64,000 nucleotides of DNA from Akkermansia sp. (GTDB taxonomy: Bacteria; Verrucomicrobiota; Verrucomicrobiia; Verrucomicrobiales; Akkermansiaceae): positions 1,711 through 65,710 of the forward strand of contig JAFZHC010000040.1 in assembly GCA_017555025.1 (NCBI GenBank), written 5' to 3'. The translations under genes and the position numbers were made by a program. Each line of letters opens with the position of its first letter. Position 1 is the stretch's first letter. Below, piece after piece: positions 1,425 to 43,219 of this stretch. The notes beneath the pieces are model-generated. The model was not told the origin of the DNA. It searched no databases and was given only the letters and a program-made list of their open reading frames with translations.

Positions 1425-2594
1425 TTACATGCTTTCAGCAAGGATTTCTCGTACCTCTGCGGTGGTGAGCTCGGGCTTATACCCGCCACGCAGCAGGAAT
1501 GTACCTTCGGCGATACCATCCAGCATATCGTCAGTCGTACCCAGCTCACGCAGGGACAGCACAAGGCCTATCTCCTGCATCCACGCCTTCATGGCATCCA
1601 GCCCGGCTAAGGCTGTTTCTTCATCCGTCTTGCCATTCTCGGATATGCCCCATACATTGACGGCAAATCGCTTGAATTTGGGCAGACCGCAGGGGAGAAT
1701 ATGGCGGAAGTAAGGCAAGGTGACAGCGGCCAGCGTCATGCCATGTGTGGCATCTGTGTAGGCTCCGACGGATTGGCCCATCATGTGCACCATCCAGTCG
1801 GTTGTTTTGCCTTTGGCTATGAGTGTGTTCAGAGCCCAGGTCGCTGTCCACATGATATTGCTGCGAGCCTCGTAATTCTGCGGATCGGCGGCAGCCGTGC
1901 GGGACGCGGTGATGAGAGAGCGCATCAGCCCCTCGGCGATGTAGTCGCTCGTATTGTCATCGGTGCCGGAGAGGTACTGCTCCAGAATGTGAGACATAAT
2001 ATCGAAACAGCCTGCCACCATCTGATAGCGGGGGAGCGTGAGGGTGAGCTCGGGGTTCAGAATAGAGAAGCGGGGATATACGCGGTCATCAAACACACGG
2101 CCAATTTTGCGTTTTGTGGCGTGATTGGTGATGACGGAACCGCCGTTCATTTCACTGCCGGTACCGGCCATGGTCAGTACGCAGCCCACGGGGATGACCG
2201 GATTGCTCAGTGGCTCCATGCGCACGTAATATTTTTCCCACGCATCTTCCGGGCAGTGTGTGGCCACGGCCACGCCTTTGGCGTAGTCACACACAGAGCC
2301 GCCGCCTACTGCCAGTATGAGATCAGCCTTGCAGGCTCGGGCGCGGGCTACACCTTCTGCCAGTTTCTCTACTGTGGGGTTGGGCATAACGCCGGGATCT
2401 TCAGTAATGGTCTTACCGGCGGCATGAAGAATGGCGATTATTTTATCGTAAAGACCATTCTTTTTAATGGATTGCTTGCCATAAATCAGCAGTACAGAGG
2501 GGCCATAGTTTTGCAGTTCTGTGGCCAAATTATCCAGCGCATTCGGACCGAAATGCAGCTTTGTCGGGTTGGAGTAGGTGAATGTTCCGTTCAT
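1425..2594 (-). CDS. Iron-containing alcohol dehydrogenase (BdhA/YqhD-like)
   Basis: NPTKLHFG, AVGGGSVCD, TMAGTGSE motifs; metal ligands D..SH, H..G and H-G.TLA. Confidence 0.93.
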   Translation of the reverse strand: MNGTFTYSNPTKLHFGPNALDNLATELQNYGPSVLLIYGKQSIKKNGLYDKIIAILHAAGKTITEDPGVMPNPTVEKLAEGVARARACKADLILAVGGGSVCDYAKGVAVATHCPEDAWEKYYVRMEPLSNPVIPVGCVLTMAGTGSEMNGGSVITNHATKRKIGRVFDDRVYPRFSILNPELTLTLPRYQMVAGCFDIMSHILEQYLSGTDDNTSDYIAEGLMRSLITASRTAAADPQNYEARSNIMWTATWALNTLIAKGKTTDWMVHMMGQSVGAYTDATHGMTLAAVTLPYFRHILPCGLPKFKRFAVNVWGISENGKTDEETALAGLDAMKAWMQEIGLVLSLRELGTTDDMLDGIAEGTFLLRGGYKPELTTAEVREILAESM

Positions 2595-2658
2595 GGTTGT
2601 GTGAAGAAGTTTTTCTGTTTAAATGCTCTGCATTTATTCTGCATAAAGGACAAGCTGT

Positions 2659-2841
2659 TTAGATTGGCTGCATGAGCCGGGGCTTTTTTTCAATACCTTT
2701 TGCAACAAGGTCATCCTCTTTGTACCACTCGCCACGCACATGGTGCCGGTTTAACGAAAAATCAGCCATTTCTATACCAATTGCCTGACCGACGGAACCT
2801 GAGCATATATAAACAGACGAAAACTGTCTTTTACTTGCCAT
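2659..2841 (-). CDS. Small 60-aa ORF, possibly a degenerate remnant
   Basis: ORF with an upstream TTGCAA-16-TGTGG-TAGAAT promoter-like sequence (~2879-2906); no firm homology. Confidence 0.3.
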   Translation of the reverse strand: MASKRQFSSVYICSGSVGQAIGIEMADFSLNRHHVRGEWYKEDDLVAKGIEKKPRLMQPI

Positions 2842-3042
2842 TTTTTTTGCGTTTCGAGTGTACCTTTAATCCACAATCATTCTACCACATCAACAAAGTT
2901 TTGCAACCGCAAACGGGATGGCAAGACGTGAAAAAGAGACAGGGGCTCTGTAAATCCTTGCGTGAGATTTACATAAATTAATGGACATCAGCGGTCCGAA
3001 TTGATATAATATTCCGTAGCTGATACGCGCTCAGCTAAAATT

Positions 3043-3714
3043 ATGGCCGACTACGCCCCCAGACTTGACCAGAGGGAATCCCTCACGCTGAGGGAGCGGC
3101 GCATTATTGACCGAACTTTGGGCATGGATGAGCAACTGCTGCTGGTCATGCGACCGGACCCCACTATTCTGAGTGCAGAGCGACTCATTTGTTTCGGGAT
3201 GGTTGCACTCATCCTGATAGTGAGTGAAGGCGAGCTTTTCGTGCTTCCGTTTGTTCTCCTTTTCTGCGTCCTTCCCTGGTTCAGGAAATGCTACAAGAGG
3301 CGTATGCTCTATCTGGTCACCGACCGCCGATGCCTTATCCTGACCCCCAGACTACTGCCGGGTATGAACTGCCAATCATATCCGCTGGAGCCCGGCTGCA
3401 TCAAAGAGTACGAGATTTTCAGCGGTGGTATAGGTAATATCGTCTTTGAATATGACTATAGCTCCACTCACGACAGCGGTGGCTCTGACCCCGAGGACGA
3501 CCGCCGCCCTGTGGGATTCTTAGACTTGCCGCAATGCAAGCGTGTGGTCACCTTCATCCGAAAGCAGATTAAGAAGCTGCACCGGCTCGACCACCTGCCG
3601 CCCACACCGCAGCCAAAGGAGGAGACCTTCGCCGACACCGGCGGATTTGTCCCCTTTGCTGCGCTGGTTCAGGACAGGATGCAGGAAATCAAGGTGGAGA
3701 AAGAAGAAGACTGA
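3043..3714 (+). CDS. Hypothetical membrane protein, bacterial PH-domain-like
   Basis: Two hydrophobic segments followed by YLVTDRRCLIL, GxGNIVF and GFLDL patterns. Confidence 0.6.
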   Translation: MADYAPRLDQRESLTLRERRIIDRTLGMDEQLLLVMRPDPTILSAERLICFGMVALILIVSEGELFVLPFVLLFCVLPWFRKCYKRRMLYLVTDRRCLILTPRLLPGMNCQSYPLEPGCIKEYEIFSGGIGNIVFEYDYSSTHDSGGSDPEDDRRPVGFLDLPQCKRVVTFIRKQIKKLHRLDHLPPTPQPKEETFADTGGFVPFAALVQDRMQEIKVEKEED

Positions 3715-37983: not shown

Positions 37984-38805
37984 ATGGGGCTTTTTCAGGA
38001 TAACTTCTCCATGCTCTCTGAGCTCGAGCGCCTCGCCGCCATGGTGCAGGACCCCGCCCGAGTGCAGGAGATAGGTGCCGATGAGTGGCCGCTTGCTATG
38101 ATTGCCTGCGGCCTCGTTACATGCAACGACCCCGAACGTTTGCAGGAGAACCTCGATGCCTACAGCATTTTTGCATCGAAGGTGAATACTGCGGGACGTA
38201 AGGGCAGCTTGGCTCAACTGGTTCGCTTTATCACCTCTCGCAAGGGGGATGGCTGGCGGGCATTGCTGCCCTACACCTTGCAGGAGCCCGAACCCGTTCT
38301 CAGTCGTGCTGCTGCCATGCAGCTGGCCACGCTTGCACAGCCCGGTAACGATAAACTGACCGGTGTTGCTGAGTTGGCTCGCCTGATGTGCAGCCGTGAG
38401 GATGCTCCCGTAACTGTGCTCGAAGCGCTGCTCAGCCTGAGTGACCAGCGAGTGCTCCCCTATGTTGAGAAACTTTACAGCCTCTCGCCTGAGCGTATGG
38501 CTGCTATTGTGGCAGCCATCAATCCCGCACCTAATCACCTCAGTTACAGTTGGGTGCTGGGTGCATTGGCTGCGCAGCCTCAACTGGCAGAGCCCATTAC
38601 CAACCTTCTGGAGCGTATGGCCGCTGCCACAACTGCGGTTATCGACCTCGTATTGCCCATTCCTACCTGGGCATTCGAGAAACCCGCACCCCAGCCGCTG
38701 CATGGCTGGTCCCGAGCCGAGTATTTCCCCCGTATGCTCCCGGCTCTTTCTTCCCACCTTACCGAAGCGCAGATTTCACGCTTGCGCGTAGCCTTTGGCG
38801 CCTGA
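37984..38805 (+). CDS. Hypothetical protein, probably alpha-helical
   Basis: 273-aa ORF with host-like codon usage; last gene of the operon. Confidence 0.65.
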   Translation: MGLFQDNFSMLSELERLAAMVQDPARVQEIGADEWPLAMIACGLVTCNDPERLQENLDAYSIFASKVNTAGRKGSLAQLVRFITSRKGDGWRALLPYTLQEPEPVLSRAAAMQLATLAQPGNDKLTGVAELARLMCSREDAPVTVLEALLSLSDQRVLPYVEKLYSLSPERMAAIVAAINPAPNHLSYSWVLGALAAQPQLAEPITNLLERMAAATTAVIDLVLPIPTWAFEKPAPQPLHGWSRAEYFPRMLPALSSHLTEAQISRLRVAFGA

Positions 38806-38860
38806 AGTCACACTTCAGGCTTGCCAAGGCCTCGCCAATAGTGTGTAATACCTGCCGCAC

Positions 38861-38932
38861 GGCCCCGTAGTTCAATGGATAGAACGGCCCTCTCCTAAAG
38901 GGCAGATGTGGGTTCGATTCCCGCCGGGGCTG
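38861..38932 (+). tRNA. tRNA-Arg (anticodon CCT), CCA not encoded
   Basis: Cloverleaf: GGCCCCG acceptor, GTTC/GAAC D arm, GCCCT-CTCCTAA-AGGGC anticodon arm, GTGGG-TTCGATT-CCCGC T arm. Confidence 0.96.
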
Positions 38933-39888
38933 CTTCAAAAACGCTCAGTTTCGTCAAAGAAATTGACAAAAACGTGTCTGGAGTGTACGCTCACATCGAC
39001 AAGATTCTGGATTACTTCATGAGCCATGAATCTTTCAATCGAGAAGATGCTCAGTCTTTCGTACGTCAGCAAAAGCCTTACACGCTAAAGAATGACTACT
39101 CAAAAACATGGCGTCTGGCTGATATGTTGGATGCGCCTGAGCTATACGAAGCCTATCCTCGGTTAAAAGATATCTTGGTTTCCGAAGAAGACATGGGCGA
39201 CCCGCAAAATGCTGGCTCAACAGAACGCAACGATATAACAATCAATGAAAATTCTCCAGCGAGACTCCAGTTTGAGACTCTTCTTCACGAGACTCAGCAC
39301 ATCATTCAGGATATTGAAGAGTTTGCCGCAGGCTCTGACCCTGATACTGTTTATACGCAGTTCCAAAAAGCGTATGAAAGAATTGCCAAAATTGCCAAAG
39401 GGGGAGTTAATACAAGATTGGCGTCTCGCAAGATGGCAGATGGTATACTTAAGACATTTGTATCGCTTGCAAAAGACATCGCGCCTAATAAAACAAGAAC
39501 TGAAATCCTCATAAACCGTTTAACTGATGGCCTTTGGCCTAAAGTATTAAACGAAGTCGGTTTATATTTGAGAGCTGCTGGAGAAGTAGAAGCCCGAAAC
39601 GTAACCAGCCGCTTAGATTGGACATTAGAACAGAGGAAAAACATCCCCTTTAACGACACCCTTAAGTACAATGGTGAAGCCTGGGTTGACTTCTCTTTAA
39701 TAGCAGACCATCTGGAAAGCTGGCAGCGCGACCCTGTGGCTGAGCTTGGCGAACTGGGGCGATTTGGCAACAATATACAAGGTAAACTGGCTCCAATTGG
39801 AGAAAACGTATACGATGAGCGCGTTACCGCAATGATAAACGCCTTGAGCTGCCTTTTGTTTCCATTACCAAGAGCCGTAGGTCCATGA
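38933..39888 (+). pseudogene. Truncated fragment of a phage/ICE large polyvalent protein (LPD23-like zincin domain)
   Basis: L.D.LD.PELY.AYP.L, TLLHETQHIIQDIE.FA.GS, YLRAAGEVEARNV..R....EQRK..P; AT-richer than the flanks; frame open back into the tRNA; first ATG at 39019. Confidence 0.72.
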
Positions 39889-39895
39889 TAGTTTC

Positions 39896-39949
39896 TTTCA
39901 TTTATGTACATTTATGCGTTCTCCTACGCATAAATGTGCATAAATGAAA
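39896..39949. repeat. 23-bp-arm palindrome built from four CATTTATG boxes around an 8-nt spacer
   Basis: TTTCATTTATGTACATTTATGCG-TTCTCCTA-CGCATAAATGTGCATAAATGAAA, one mismatch. Confidence 0.9.
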
Positions 39950-39967
39950 ATCGATGATTTCATGATG

Positions 39968-40000
39968 AAAAAAAGGAAGCACCGTAATGGTGCTTCCTTT
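39968..40000 (-). terminator. Intrinsic terminator of the RND operon
   Basis: AAAGGAAGCACC / GGTGCTTCCTTT stem with a T-run on the minus strand. Confidence 0.85.
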
Positions 40001-40024
40001 AAAGTCGGATGGGATGATGGGGGG

Positions 40025-43000
40025 TTATGATTCCTCACCTTCGGCCAGTTTGGCGTAGGCGATTTCCTCGTCGGGGTCAGCACCATGGTGAGCCTTCTCA
40101 ATCTTGGAGCGGAAGAGCTTCATGATGAAGACGAAGGAGCAGGGGATGAAGAACACACCCACAAGGGTGGCAACGGTCATACCGATAACCACCACTACGC
40201 CGATGGCGTTTCGTGCCAGAGCGCCGGAGCCTTCAGCTGTCAGCAGCGGTACACAACCCAGAATGAAGGCGAAAGATGTCATCAGAATGGGGCGCAGACG
40301 CATGCGGGCTGCGGTAACAGCGGCGTCGAGCAGGCTCTGGCCTCGCTCCATCTGCAGCACGGCGAACTCCACAATGAGAATGGCATTCTTGGCGGCAAGA
40401 CCCACCAACATCACCAGACCAATCTGGGCATAGAGGTCGAGCGTCATGCCATACAGCCAGAGGCCGAGGAATGCACCCAGCACGGCAATGGGCACGGAGA
40501 GGAAGATGGCGAGCGGCAGCGTCCATTTCTCGTACAATGCGGCCATAATGAGGAATGCGAACACGCCGGAGAGGGTGAAGATGGCACCCAGACCGAGGCC
40601 GTCCTGCACTTTTTTCTCCTGGAAGCTCATATCAACGTAGGAGAAACCGAACTTTGTTTTGTCCATCACCTTATTGAACTCCTCTTCGATGGCGGCCATG
40701 GCCTGAGCGGAGGAGTAGCCCTCGGCGGGCTGCACGCTGATTTTACCGGAGTTGTAGTTGTTGGTATGCTGAACATACTCGGTATCGGCAATGTCTTTAA
40801 TGGTGACGAGGGTACTCAGCGGTACCGATTCGCCCTTGCTGTTGGCAACGTAGAAGTTGGCAATCTGATCCGTATTGGTACGGCTTACACCGGCAGCCTG
40901 CAGGTACACCTGCCACTGCTGACCGAACTGGGTGTAATAGTTCACGAATCGTGAACCGTTGAAGCACTGCAGCAGGGTGTTTGCGCCGGAGTAATCCACG
41001 CCCTGAGCCAGACATTTATCCTTGTCGATGGCAATGCTCTTCTGCGGTACGGCAGGCAGCATCATGTCCGAAGCCTTGGCAATGGCGGGGTTGGCGTTCA
41101 GTGCAGCCTCGAGGCGCTGCATTTGGCGGTACAGCTCAGCTACACCCTGACCTTCGCGGTCTTCCAGCACGAAGGTGATGTCGTTACCGGTACCTACGCC
41201 GGGGATGGCAGGGGGCATGGCAACAAAGACCATACCGTCGGCTCCGCTCATGGCAAGCTTGGCATTGAGACGTTTGTAAATGTCCTCTGCCGTGGGGCGC
41301 TTGCCGTTCTCCATCACCGGGCGCTCGGCGAAGTCGTGCAACTTCACGAAGTAGGTCATGGCGTTGGTGGTCTGCACGTTAATCATCATGTTCATACCGA
41401 TGATGGATACAACGTGGTCAACGGCAGAGTCCTCCAGAAGTGTTTTCTCAACCGGAACGGTTTCTTCCGTCAGGCGCTGCATGGAGCAGCCGGGTTTCAT
41501 GATAACACCGGCAATGAGGAAGCCTTGGTCCTCGGAGGGAAGGAAGCCACCGGGCACACGGGAAGCCGTGGGGATGATGAGTGCGGCCAGACCGGCAAGT
41601 AAGGGCATGGAAATCCAGAGGCGGCGGCAGAGGAAACCGCAAATAGCGGCAAACTTACCGGCCAACCAGTCATAGCCCTTATTGAAGCCGTTGTAGAAGG
41701 GGGTGAGCAGAGACTTGTGCTCATGCTTGTTCTTGAGCATGATTGCCGAGAGGGCGGGGGAAAGCGTCAGGGCGTTGAAGGCCGAGATGAGCATGGAGAC
41801 GGCAATCGTTACGGCGAACTGCTGGAAAAGCGTACCCGTAATGCCGGGTAACAGCACCGAGGGGAGGAACACAGCCGCCAGCACGAGAGCAATGGCTACT
41901 ACCGGACCGCTCACTTCCTTCATGGCGGCAAAGGTGGCCTGACGGGGAGTCAATCCGTTCTCCATGTGCGATTCTACAGCTTCAACCACCACGATGGCGT
42001 CGTCCACCACCAGACCGATGGCCAGCACCATGCCGAGCAGACAGATGGTGTTGAGCGAGAAGCCCAGAATGGGGAAGAAGCAGAAGGTCGTCACCAGAGA
42101 TACCGGCACAGCGATGAGGGGAATGAGCGTGGCACGCCAGCCCTGCAGGAACAGGAATACCACAAGACCTACCAGCACGAGAGCTTCGAAGAGCGTGTGG
42201 ATGATCTCGTTGATGGAGTCACTTACTGTTGTGGTGGTGTCCAGAGCAATGAACCCGCGCATACCTTCGGGCATGACCTTTTCCTTTTCGGCAAAGAGCT
42301 CACGCAGCGAGGCAACCGTTTCCAGTGCATTGGCATCTGACGCCTGATAGATGGCAAGACAGGTGGCGGGCTGGGCGTCTACTCGGCCGGCGAGCGAGTA
42401 GCTCTGGGAGCCCAGCTCAATCTTGGCGATATCTTTCAGGCGAACGGCCTGAGTGCGGTTCTGGTAAATGATGATGTCACCGAACTCTTCGATGCTTTCC
42501 ACGCGCCCCTTGTTACGGATGGTGAAGGTGAACTCCTGGCCATCGGGCATGGGTTCGGCACCTACGGAGCCGCCGGGGTTGGTGTTGTTCTGCTGGTAAA
42601 CTGCATTGTACACCTGATCGACGGTCAGTCCCTTTTGAGCCATGCGCTCACTATCCAGCCAGATGCGGACGGCATAGCGGCCGCCGAACACCATCACATC
42701 ACCCACGCCTTTTACGCGTTTGGTGGGGTCGACCAAGTTAATGTAGGCGTAGCCGGTCAGGTCGATGGGGTTGAAAAAGCCTTCGGGAGAATCGATAGCA
42801 TAAATCATCAGCGGCAGACCGGACGACTGCTTGATGGTAACACCCATCTGCGATACGGTGCTGGGCAGCTGTGAGGTTGCCTGGCTGTAGCGCATGTAGG
42901 TGAGCTGTTGGTTGGTATTGGCATCTGACCCGGGTTCAAAGATAACATTGAGCGAGCACGAACCGTTGTTGGAGGAGGTGGAGCTCATGTAATCCATCTT

Positions 43001-43219
43001 CTGAATACCCGAGAGCTGAAGCTCAATGGGGGTAGCCACGGCATCCGCCACTTCCTGAGCATTGGCACCGGGGTAGGTGGCGCTCAGCTGAATGGTGATG
43101 GGGGTGATGTCCGGGTACTGAGAGATGGGCAGAGCCAGCATGCAGATGATACCCAGCATCGTGGTCACGATGGAGATAACGCCTGCGATGATGGGGTGTT
43201 TAATGAAATAAGGAGACAT
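40025..43219 (-). CDS. RND efflux permease (HAE1, AcrB/MexB-like)
   Basis: [47 protein letters not shown]; proton-relay D-D-K-T residues intact. Confidence 0.96.

Follow-up and report, generated by a model that had tools for sequence, protein, structure and literature searches.

An open reading frame downstream of tRNA-Arg(CCT) in an uncultured gut Akkermansia sp., here called orfX, is probably a leftover internal piece of a giant polyvalent-protein gene from a phage or integrative element, left at a tRNA hotspot. On this view it is an ordinary scar in the genome that has kept an open frame by chance. An earlier note on this DNA had described an orphan polyvalent-protein fragment at a tRNA hotspot, and this description held up, as orfX has giant homologues, coding homology extends upstream of its first ATG, the site is empty in the related species G098, and integrases are found at the same tRNA in other genomes.

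A single open frame of foreign composition next to the tRNA gene

The window, i.e. the whole stretch of 64,000 nt that was analysed, comes from contig JAFZHC010000040.1 of assembly GCA_017555025.1. Both the tRNA-Arg(CCT) and the long stop-free frame named in the earlier note were confirmed, the latter as a single open frame of 330 codons at 38899-39888. The features from the tRNA to the end of orfX are as follows.

38861-38933, + strand: tRNA-Arg(CCT), chromosomal (ARAGORN; Rfam RF00005, 65.6 bits)
38938-38953, + strand: left arm of the tRNA terminator; right arm and U-run lost, weak 8-bp hairpin left
38954-39018, + strand: in-frame coding remnant 5' of the first ATG; left junction within it, the foreign DNA beginning at about 38954-38962
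39019-39888, + strand: orfX from the first ATG, 289 aa (P0001); single zincin-type MPTase module plus tail
39106-39330, + strand: zincin core with the PELYEAYP motif, beta-strands and the HETQH helix; invariant columns in alignments A1 and A2
39340-39555, + strand: variable helical insert between the two catalytic helices (alignment; AlphaFold pLDDT 48-73)
39565-39660, + strand: second catalytic helix YLRAAGEVEARNV with GEVEAR; invariant Y183, G188, E189, E191 and R193
39694-39846, + strand: 51-codon tail SLIADHLESWQRDPVAELGELGRFGNNIQGKLAPIGENVYDERVTAMINAL, common to L072; its first 46 residues also in ORF616 of G110
39847-39888, + strand: right junction, 13 window-only codons SCLLFPLPRAVGP and the stop codon; homology to L072 ends after MINAL

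The GC content was 57-60% in the flanks and 42-49% across approximately 38950-40000. For orfX itself the GC content was 44.8% and GC3 0.43, while GC3 of the flanking genes was 0.63 and 0.72 and the genome GC was 53.5%, which indicated a foreign origin of orfX. The composition was also mosaic inside orfX, with a GC3 of 0.42 in the zincin part vs 0.69 in the tail.

The gene order up301-up273-tRNA-Arg(CCT) was kept across the genus (synteny, 29 loci). Downstream of the tRNA, homology with G050 and G006 ended at 38952-38966, and the sister-species sequence went on for approximately 20-30 nt after the tRNA, reaching the terminator's left arm. The turn to AT-rich composition in the earlier note is therefore real, but the foreign DNA does not start exactly at the tRNA 3' end as had been claimed; its true start is at about 38954-38962. 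The tRNA terminators of G050 and L072 had perfect stems of 16 bp followed by U-runs, at -23.3 kcal/mol (z -6.4) and -20.5 kcal/mol (z -7.4) respectively, and folding of the same region in the window gave -14.7 kcal/mol and z -2.2 and showed no U-run. As the terminator is broken by the loss of its right arm and U-run, expression of orfX by tRNA read-through is plausible from the sequence. No sigma-70-like promoter was found for orfX, and ATG 39019 was not preceded by a clear Shine-Dalgarno sequence; the coding remnant at 38954-39018 contained no ATG, and GTG only at 38974 and 38983.

orfX was absent from the 153 other Akkermansia species (1 of 154 species has it), so the core gene conserved across the genus that the earlier note had considered as the contrary case was not seen. 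A scan of genome contigs with the orfX protein itself as query found nothing.

orfX is a zincin-type MPTase module of giant polyvalent proteins

orfX is a zincin-type MPTase module, a neighbour of LPD23, ART, MuF_C and PBECR domains in giant phage polyvalent proteins. HETQH and GEVEAR, which the earlier note had read in the frame, were there at 39286-39300 and 39580-39597; they are residues 90-94 and 188-193 and lie in helices 81-99 and 187-197 of the AlphaFold model. Both motifs were conserved in 31 sequences, and both helices were modelled with a pLDDT of about 82-95 (82-94 for the second helix; above 90 for residues 30-100). Predicted strands at 53-57, 66-69 and 72-76 and a short one at 30-32 precede the HExxH helix (pLDDT 83-95; prediction only), and Asp98 stands three residues after the HETQH motif in the zincin core. 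All family-invariant residues are kept in orfX. In such a zinc site HExxH would supply the catalytic Glu along with two His ligands, and the Glu of the second catalytic helix, in GE-x-EAR, is the presumed third zinc ligand. The helical insert between the two helices was long in P0005, P0006 and P0008, and P0003 and P0004 had a short one or none. A first structure model built from 7 sequences had a pLDDT of 48.6 and was set aside as too poor.

The label "LPD23-like" given by the earlier note did not survive the Pfam search, in which neither the 289-aa nor the 326-aa form had an LPD23 match at E<=1. LPD23 (PF18838, a profile of 58 positions) does share proteins with the module: in homologues P0004-P0008 it was matched at 51-60 bits as a separate segment N-terminal of the module, 40-60 residues upstream, and in orfX the region where it would be expected is removed by the 5' truncation. 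Around HETQH the Pfam scores were sub-threshold only, with Peptidase_M78 at 18.0 bits (cut-off 22, E 0.0026) and DUF6782 at 17 bits (cut-off 27), and no match to MPTase-PolyVal was listed at E<=1. The zincin clade of orfX thus appears to have no Pfam model that covers it well, and this clade is large.

At least 3000 representative proteins matched orfX at E<=1e-3. The best 150 of these at least 3000 cluster representatives had a median length of 2247 aa, 117 of the 150 were 1000 aa or longer, and 72 of the 150 had two or more HExQH motifs. The homologues were overwhelmingly internal modules of 1000-7242-aa proteins, with MuF_C, PBECR5 and ART-PolyVal as partner domains, and short relatives of 205-497 aa also exist. 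Congeners had the module inside open frames of 2297-3748 aa, and in the window's own genome a 3612-aa polyvalent frame on contig C53 carries the module together with MuF_C and PBECR5. Foldseek against viral models (BFVD) gave 8 matches at E<=1e-3, and 6 of the 8 carry the name [quoted passage not shown]. The 1879-position profile phrog_13543 matched orfX at 1.8e-9, and the isolate phage collection gave three weak matches only (29-30% identity).

orfX is cut at both ends

Judged from the DNA and its homologues, orfX is truncated at both ends. On the 5' side, tblastn of P0014, P0017, P0025 and P0036 carried the homology back to 38947-38956, which is 21-24 codons 5' of the first ATG, and this pre-ATG stretch is internal in P0017, P0025 and P0036 (alignment A3). 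On the 3' side, the L072 tail goes on for 65 codons past the point where the window match stops (39846), and a 38-mer of the right junction region was found at this locus only.

The tail was 80% identical to L072 in nucleotides (115 nt) and about 85% in amino acids, and 65-70% identical in amino acids to P0158 (ORF616) of G110. A search of 5.8 billion proteins with the tail returned P0002 and P0014 only, and among the 153 other species of the genus it was matched in one, G110, at a different tRNA locus. In the AlphaFold model the tail is disordered (pLDDT <50).

The intact frame raises the question of whether the host retained a stand-alone peptidase, i.e. whether truncated orfX is transcribed with the tRNA and started at ATG 39019 or at an upstream GTG as a free zincin. 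Such a zincin would, for example, cleave polyvalent proteins brought in by superinfecting phages, or else a regulator of the host or of a phage, as IrrE/ImmA peptidases do. The intact frame and the presence of every invariant residue agree with this reading, and the broken terminator makes read-through possible. Short relatives are known (205-497 aa), solo polyvalent-protein domains are on record (PMC5512222), and there is a weak likeness to M78/IrrE (E 0.0026), PprI/IrrE being the best PDB folds at E>=1. The sequence was also identical in six assemblies: orfX was unchanged in 6 of 6 metagenome contigs having identical flanking proteins, but these contigs share 100% DNA identity over 21 kb and appear to be one lineage, so they are uninformative on selection. 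However, the pre-ATG coding homology and the truncated tail, disordered in the model, argue for accidental boundaries. The M78 score is under the Pfam cut-off, orfX is limited to 1 of 154 species, its composition has not drifted toward that of the host, and the sister copies L072 and L071 are broken. Neither a promoter-like site nor a PADLOC match was found with orfX. We therefore regard a retained stand-alone peptidase as unlikely. The domesticated anti-host or anti-phage peptidase of the earlier note found no backing in the PADLOC and promoter searches, in the 153 species or in the decaying L072 and L071 copies; no selected function of orfX is evident, and nothing shows a host use.

The tRNA-Arg(CCT) site in other Akkermansia

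Related genomes hold both the empty and the occupied state of this locus that the earlier note had envisaged, and by this comparison of loci the 3' flank of tRNA-Arg(CCT) is an integration hotspot in Akkermansia. The empty site is in the related species G098, which has tRNA-Arg(CCT), a 242-nt spacer, the orthologue of the RND efflux transporter (89.9% aa identity), d1099, d212 and d269. An integrase lies directly 3' of tRNA-Arg(CCT), within approximately 250 nt, in G021, G104, G087 and G120, and the attR of the G021 element was not found within 20 kb. G079 has kept att-arm repeats and an integrase stub at this site. In the window itself, the two absences reported by the earlier note were borne out: no integrase homologue was found in the 64 kb, and no second copy of the tRNA 3' end at <=3 mismatches. 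An 11.5-kb stretch between tRNA and pump in G050 was considered as a full element and rejected, as it carries the Pho regulon (pstSCAB-phoU, phoBR, porin, PHO4).

Polyvalent-protein debris lies at the same tRNA-Arg(CCT) place in L072, G124 and G079. In the L072 copy, from sample SRR7949672, an 11-nt duplication shifts the frame. The L071 copy, from sample ERZ28633443, contains a stop and an indel, and its residues at the conserved positions Gln97 and Asp98 are altered. The type of donor has a precedent, as the order tRNA, integrase, giant gene is seen on contig C53 of the same genome, at tRNA-Ser, and in G004, at tRNA-Arg(CCG). The C53 element is prophage-like and integrase-flanked, and it is the one with the 3612-aa polyvalent protein.

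The shared tail suggests another reading, namely a long-lived polymorphic tRNA-linked locus. The ancestor of G000 and of the G124/G079/L072 lineage would have had the tail gene and an ankyrin-repeat gene here; giant genes of arriving phages would have recombined with it and swapped its N-terminal zincin/ART module again and again, and the window allele would have lost its 3' part in a rearrangement. The window and L072 agree in tRNA, orientation and tail; their zincin parts are only 35% identical, and the GC3 mosaic of orfX runs along the same division. In G124 and G079, ART-/LPD23-type debris precedes the distal part of the L072-type tail and then the ankyrin gene (93% aa identity), G110 has MuF_C and ART joined to the same tail, and L071 is a mosaic in which a 277-nt stretch is 99% identical to the window. 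The tail of the window vs L072 also has a host-like pS of 0.70 (host genes, 0.50-0.63) and a pN of 0.09, giving a dN/dS of about 0.05, but the sample is only 51 codons. The tail is moreover rare (P0002 and P0014 in 5.8 billion proteins, one other species of 154), and every copy but that of the window is frameshifted or internally deleted. G098 is empty. G104 and G124 are equally close to G000, and G104 has an integrase there instead. We consider such a locus very unlikely. A further idea is a "module trap", in which a tail stub kept by the host, with an ankyrin partner in some lineages, would over a long time repeatedly capture zincin/ART modules from the giant polyvalent genes of neighbouring integrated phages, and the window allele would, via tRNA read-through, supply a free zincin interfering with the polyvalent proteins of incoming phages; to this we give an equally small chance.

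A possible course of events

For the scar, which we prefer, the following course is proposed. An element with a polyvalent gene, or an L072-like remnant, would once have sat between the tRNA and the RND pump, and deletions or rearrangements would then have stripped all but about 0.9 kb. At the left break, coding sequence minus its start and upstream region would have been fused onto the left arm of the tRNA terminator, and at the right break the gene would have been cut 14 codons ahead of the present stop. This would leave one zincin MPTase module and the first 51 codons of the next region. Aberrant excision, which the earlier note had favoured, may have been the mechanism by which the element was lost. 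The module of an intact polyvalent protein presumably acts as a zinc peptidase in the processing of the giant polypeptide, and this context is gone here. Transcription of orfX may come by tRNA read-through past the broken terminator, and translation from ATG 39019 or from GTG 38974/38983 could give a protein of about 290-305 aa with the catalytic core predicted to be intact.

Some points count against a scar. There is no stop or frameshift in 330 codons and all conserved catalytic residues are present, which means that the piece is of very recent origin or else has been maintained. In the two intact examples examined, C53 and G004, the giant gene converges on the tRNA, while orfX is co-directional with it, so a simple deletion starting from that arrangement does not yield the present layout. 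Integration that split the giant gene at attP was rejected as an explanation, as both examples have a complete giant gene, with the integrase between it and the tRNA.

Other observations at the locus also sit uneasily with a scar. Purifying selection on the tail was strong as the copies of the window and L072 diverged, and its pS close to that of host genes would also fit a long joint residence in the host lineage. The att repeat and the integrase are both missing.

Comparison with known systems

Zincin-like MPTase domains of polyvalent proteins were described by Iyer, Burroughs, Anand, de Souza and Aravind (2017, J Bacteriol; PMC5512222), and an Asp three residues after HExxH is a trait of a widespread phage-type MPTase clade (PMC5512222). 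Like these domains, orfX has a HExxH helix and, beyond a variable insert, a second helix that carries the Glu ligand, and it has the Asp after HExxH. Its homologues lie, frequently as several copies, within giant phage proteins with MuF_C, ART-PolyVal, PBECR and LPD domains. Unlike them, orfX is a solitary module, truncated on both sides, at a chromosomal tRNA where nothing else of the element remains, and it is missed at E<=1 by the Pfam models, including MPTase-PolyVal. It also differs from LPD23, to which it has no match.

The best, weak likeness of orfX in Pfam and PDB is to the small zincin core round HExxH of IrrE/ImmA/PprI (Peptidase_M78, PF06114) and DUF6782. However, the scores are below the cut-offs, sequence and fold searches of the PDB gave no significant match (Foldseek E>=1, with PprI/IrrE at E>=1.1), there is no partner repressor gene, and orfX has no helix-turn-helix domain. 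The locus resembles prophage and island remnants at tRNA sites in its deviant composition, its position 3' of a tRNA, the empty site in a relative and the integrase elements at the same tRNA elsewhere. It differs from typical remnants in that att repeat and integrase are lacking, the junction lies in the terminator and not in the tRNA, and a single intact frame survives.

We therefore propose that orfX be annotated as a truncated polyvalent-protein MPTase module at a hotspot, neither as LPD23 nor as a candidate defence or virulence peptidase. More generally, tRNA-Arg(CCT) is often used for insertion in uncultured Akkermansia from animal guts, prophage-like elements of the genus carry polyvalent proteins of at least 3000 aa, and a large zincin clade of at least 3000 cluster representatives is without a good Pfam model. 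If orfX were a retained and expressed free zincin or part of a module-swapping locus, it would be a small case of a host reusing phage injection weaponry.

The right flank

To the right of orfX lies a palindrome, followed by the efflux pump gene.

39896-39949, no strand assigned: palindrome with a 24-bp stem and CATTTATG boxes (-32.9 kcal/mol, z -11.9)
39972-40000, - strand: intrinsic terminator of the RND pump gene, 12-bp stem and T-run
40025-43219, - strand: RND efflux transporter gene, right chromosomal flank (PF00873 ACR_tran); its G098 orthologue directly adjoins the tRNA

The palindrome belongs to a small dispersed family, with other copies on contigs C28, C31 and C53, and G098 has it at its empty site too. 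For these reasons an att or recombinase site was set aside. The palindrome is probably part of the efflux-pump flank.

An open frame of foreign composition at tRNA-Arg(CCT)

The open frame on the 3′ side of tRNA-Arg(CCT), named orfX, comes from a polyvalent-protein gene (encoding a giant multi-domain protein of phages and mobile elements) of which a single module is left, truncated on both sides. It lies at a tRNA often used for integration, and it is a real yet ordinary feature in one Akkermansia species. The tRNA, the AT-rich turn, the open frame and the two peptidase motifs described in an earlier note were all real, as judged by ARAGORN and Rfam, the GC profile and the 330-codon frame. The positions were as follows.

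38861-38933, + strand: tRNA-Arg(CCT) (ARAGORN, Rfam)
38899 (within the tRNA) to the stop at 39886-39888, + strand: open frame of orfX, 330 codons
39019, + strand: first ATG of orfX, giving a protein of 289 aa (P0001)
39286-39300, + strand: HETQH
39580-39597, + strand: GEVEAR
39694-39846, + strand: tail of orfX, 51 codons, matched in contig L072 where the P0014 gene continues
39896-39949: hairpin with a 24-bp stem, -32.9 kcal/mol

GC content was 42-49% over about 38950-40000 and 57-60% in the flanks, and orfX itself had 44.8% GC and a GC3 of 0.43, a composition foreign to the host. The note had also reported neither an integrase nor a duplicated tRNA 3′ end, and we likewise found no integrase homologue and no second copy of the 22-nt tRNA 3′ end within 3 mismatches in the whole window. 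The genomes sharing the upstream gene were metagenome-assembled Akkermansia sp., several of them from sheep, goat and deer gut samples.

orfX is a zincin module of polyvalent proteins

The label “LPD23-like” that had been given to orfX was wrong. Pfam gave no LPD23 match; the only hits, around HETQH, were to Peptidase_M78 at 18 bits and to DUF6782 at 17 bits, below the respective cut-offs of 22 and 27 bits. Searches of NCBIfam and PADLOC with orfX returned nothing meaningful, and PHROGs gave phrog_13543, a 1879-position profile, at 1.8e-9. A word-indexed protein search turned up no more than six relatives, all short and distant, of which five had LPD23 and one ART-PolyVal, and pairwise alignments placed the LPD23 of the relatives in a separate segment, N-terminal of the part homologous to orfX, so orfX is the zincin module that accompanies LPD23 and not LPD23 itself.

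In an exhaustive HMMER search, orfX matched 3000 or more cluster representatives at E ≤ 1e-3; among the best 150 of these, the median length was 2247 aa, 117 had at least 1000 aa (the longest 7242 aa), and the HExQH motif occurred at least twice in 72. In Akkermansia, the module was located inside open frames of 2297-3748 aa, with up to three copies per protein. The zincin-like metallopeptidase (MPTase) of polyvalent proteins is described as having two catalytic helices separated by a variable insert, with an Asp three residues past HExxH (Iyer et al., PMC5512222); orfX fits this description, its Asp being D98, which was invariant in an alignment of 7 sequences (A1). The AlphaFold model (31 sequences) had pLDDT > 90 at residues 30-100 and 190-210 and < 50 in the final 68 residues, and the predicted order was strands, then the HExxH helix and the GEVEAR helix. 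Foldseek comparison of this model with the PDB gave no significant match (best PprI/IrrE, E = 1.1), and comparison with viral models gave eight matches at E ≤ 1e-3, all from uncultured tailed phages and six of them named [quoted passage not shown].

In the same genome the module was also found inside a 3612-aa frame with MuF_C and PBECR5 on contig C53, where positions 1-37100, outside the window, form a prophage-like region adjoining tRNA-Ser(GGA). A 762-aa frame preceding the giant gene may encode a portal protein.

C53:24819-35654, + strand: polyvalent giant gene, 3612 aa, with MuF_C, PBECR5 and one zincin module
C53:35738-36874, − strand: integrase
C53:37006-37094, − strand: tRNA-Ser(GGA)

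Truncation at both ends

The nearest relatives served as tblastn queries: P0014 (320 aa), and P0017 (762 aa), P0025 (2650 aa) and P0036 (1150 aa), whose matching regions are internal. Their alignments reached as far as 38947-38956, 21-24 codons before the first ATG of orfX, and in the multiple alignment VKEIDKNVSGVYAHIDKILDYF matched the equivalent stretches of all four proteins. In the three longer ones an LPD23-like motif lies another 70-100 residues upstream, and the segment carrying it is absent here. DNA similarity of the window to the sister species G050 and G006 continued through the tRNA into the left arm of its terminator and ended at 38952-38966; the terminators of G050 and L072 have perfect 16-bp stems and U-runs, and in the window a weak 8-bp stem without U-run remains.

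At the other end, the tail was compared with L072, a Logan assembly contig of SRR7949672 from a congener (KdsB 96.7% identical to that of the window's genome). Identity in the tail was about 85% for protein and 80% for DNA over a 115-nt core, and the homology ended after MINAL, where L072 goes on for 65 further codons and the window has 13 unique codons and then a stop. These alignments show orfX to be cut at both ends.

The tRNA-Arg(CCT) locus in relatives

The comparison of this locus among related genomes that the note had suggested showed it empty in one genome (G098) and occupied by integrases in four (G021, G104, G087 and G120). The order of the two upstream genes, up301 and up273, and the tRNA was kept throughout the genus, and the 3′ side of the tRNA varied. 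The empty arrangement consisted of the tRNA, a 242-nt spacer, an orthologue of the RND efflux pump (89.9% aa identity) and then the genes that lie beyond the pump in the window. In the four occupied genomes a tyrosine integrase (mutually 75-80% identical) started about 130-150 nt past the tRNA, with repeat-rich att-arm-like DNA in between, and G079 retained such DNA and an integrase stub. These integrases were 58-60% identical to that of G004, which has tRNA-Arg(CCG) on one side and a polyvalent gene of 3383 aa on the other, and the G087 element has one gene in common with the C53 element. Truncation at both ends, the empty site and the four integrase-bearing loci together bear out the note's core claim of an orphan polyvalent-protein fragment at a tRNA integration hotspot. 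However, orfX runs in the direction of the tRNA, whereas the giant genes of C53 and G004, the two intact examples examined, converge on their tRNAs, a layout from which simple deletion would not give the orientation seen here.

The hairpin after the orfX stop belongs to a small palindrome family with the core CATTTATGCG-(6-10 nt)-CGCATAAATG. Other copies in the same genome were at C28:74700, at C31:1-355 (a tandem array of a 76-nt unit, 4.7 copies, at the contig start) and C31:1583-1620, and at C53:35676-35703, 20 nt past the giant-gene stop; the family could represent a terminator or a protein-binding site. Because the empty site of G098 has a copy at the equivalent spot beside the pump, the palindrome at 39896-39949 is most likely part of the pump flank and not a recombination site bounding the insert, which would place the right junction of the foreign DNA between 39846 and 39895.

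The Pho regulon lies between tRNA and pump in G050 and G080. The last ~70 codons of a PHO4-family transporter ORF of G050 (L039 = G050:C102, 10918-11127) resemble the pump C-terminus (43% aa identity; 79% nt identity over 90 nt; compared with L097 of G098, positions 341-430), which points to insertion of the Pho cluster together with a duplication of the pump 3′ end. In G006 (L065 = G006:C304, 978-4877) a tyrosine integrase and a complete MmeI-type restriction-modification enzyme come after the pump orthologue, so the pump flank hosts another kind of island. Three independent Logan contigs (L072, L104 and L105) start or end inside tRNA-Arg(CCT) at nearly the same base, as expected if strains with different 3′ flanks coexist in the samples.

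Age, selection and expression

All contigs with an identical orfX protein represented one lineage without any difference over 21 kb. For the 51 codons of the tail, comparison of the window with L072 gave pS 0.70, pN 0.09 and dN/dS of about 0.05, and this pS was similar to that of host genes of the two organisms (0.50-0.63). Long residence in the host lineage is a minority reading of this divergence. The zincin parts were only about 35% identical, both retaining all motifs, and the values fit divergence while the sequences would have belonged to working genes in the element pool. No sigma-70-like promoter was found over 38600-40150 and no obvious Shine-Dalgarno sequence before ATG 39019; with the terminator of the tRNA disabled, the only evident route to orfX transcription would be read-through from the promoter of the tRNA. 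The idea of a host-domesticated peptidase is currently unsupported.

Polyvalent-protein debris at other loci

L072 begins within tRNA-Arg(CCT), whose terminator is intact. About 185 nt containing three ATGGTACA boxes separate this terminator from the P0014 gene, which has the orientation of orfX (P0014 and the translated window frame 34.5% identical over 310 aa). This gene (region 100-1553) is frameshifted just before the tail by an 11-nt tandem duplication (gcgaccctgta), and the tail ORF ends in an ATGA overlap with a 641-aa ankyrin-repeat gene (region 1550-3475). This ankyrin gene matched the PADLOC candidate PDC-M72A at 9e-30, and downstream of it are thioredoxin-like, uppS and kdsB genes. 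G124 and G079 shared the ankyrin gene, at 93% aa identity, and the genes downstream of it; in both, the ankyrin gene was preceded by frameshifted debris with ART-PolyVal-like and LPD23-like motifs and no zincin.

The window tail was matched in only one other species, G110, of 154 species searched in the genus, and a query with the longer L072-type tail over 5.8 billion proteins returned P0002 and P0014 and no others. In G110 (L077 = G110:C121, 8965-11085) a 616-aa frame, without Met over its first ~240 residues, contains MuF_C, half an ART-PolyVal domain and then the tail motif (65-70% identity), and it fills the 1.95 kb between convergent tRNA-Ser(GGA) and tRNA-Leu(CAA). The 581-bp contig L071 is a mosaic that contains 277 nt with 99% identity to 39239-39515 of the window, in which Pro replaces Gln97 and Tyr replaces Asp98. 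Unrelated AT-rich DNA adjoins these 277 nt on one side, and on the other the sequence is ~70% identical and has a stop and an indel; the mosaic may stem from chimeric assembly or be a remnant of recombination.
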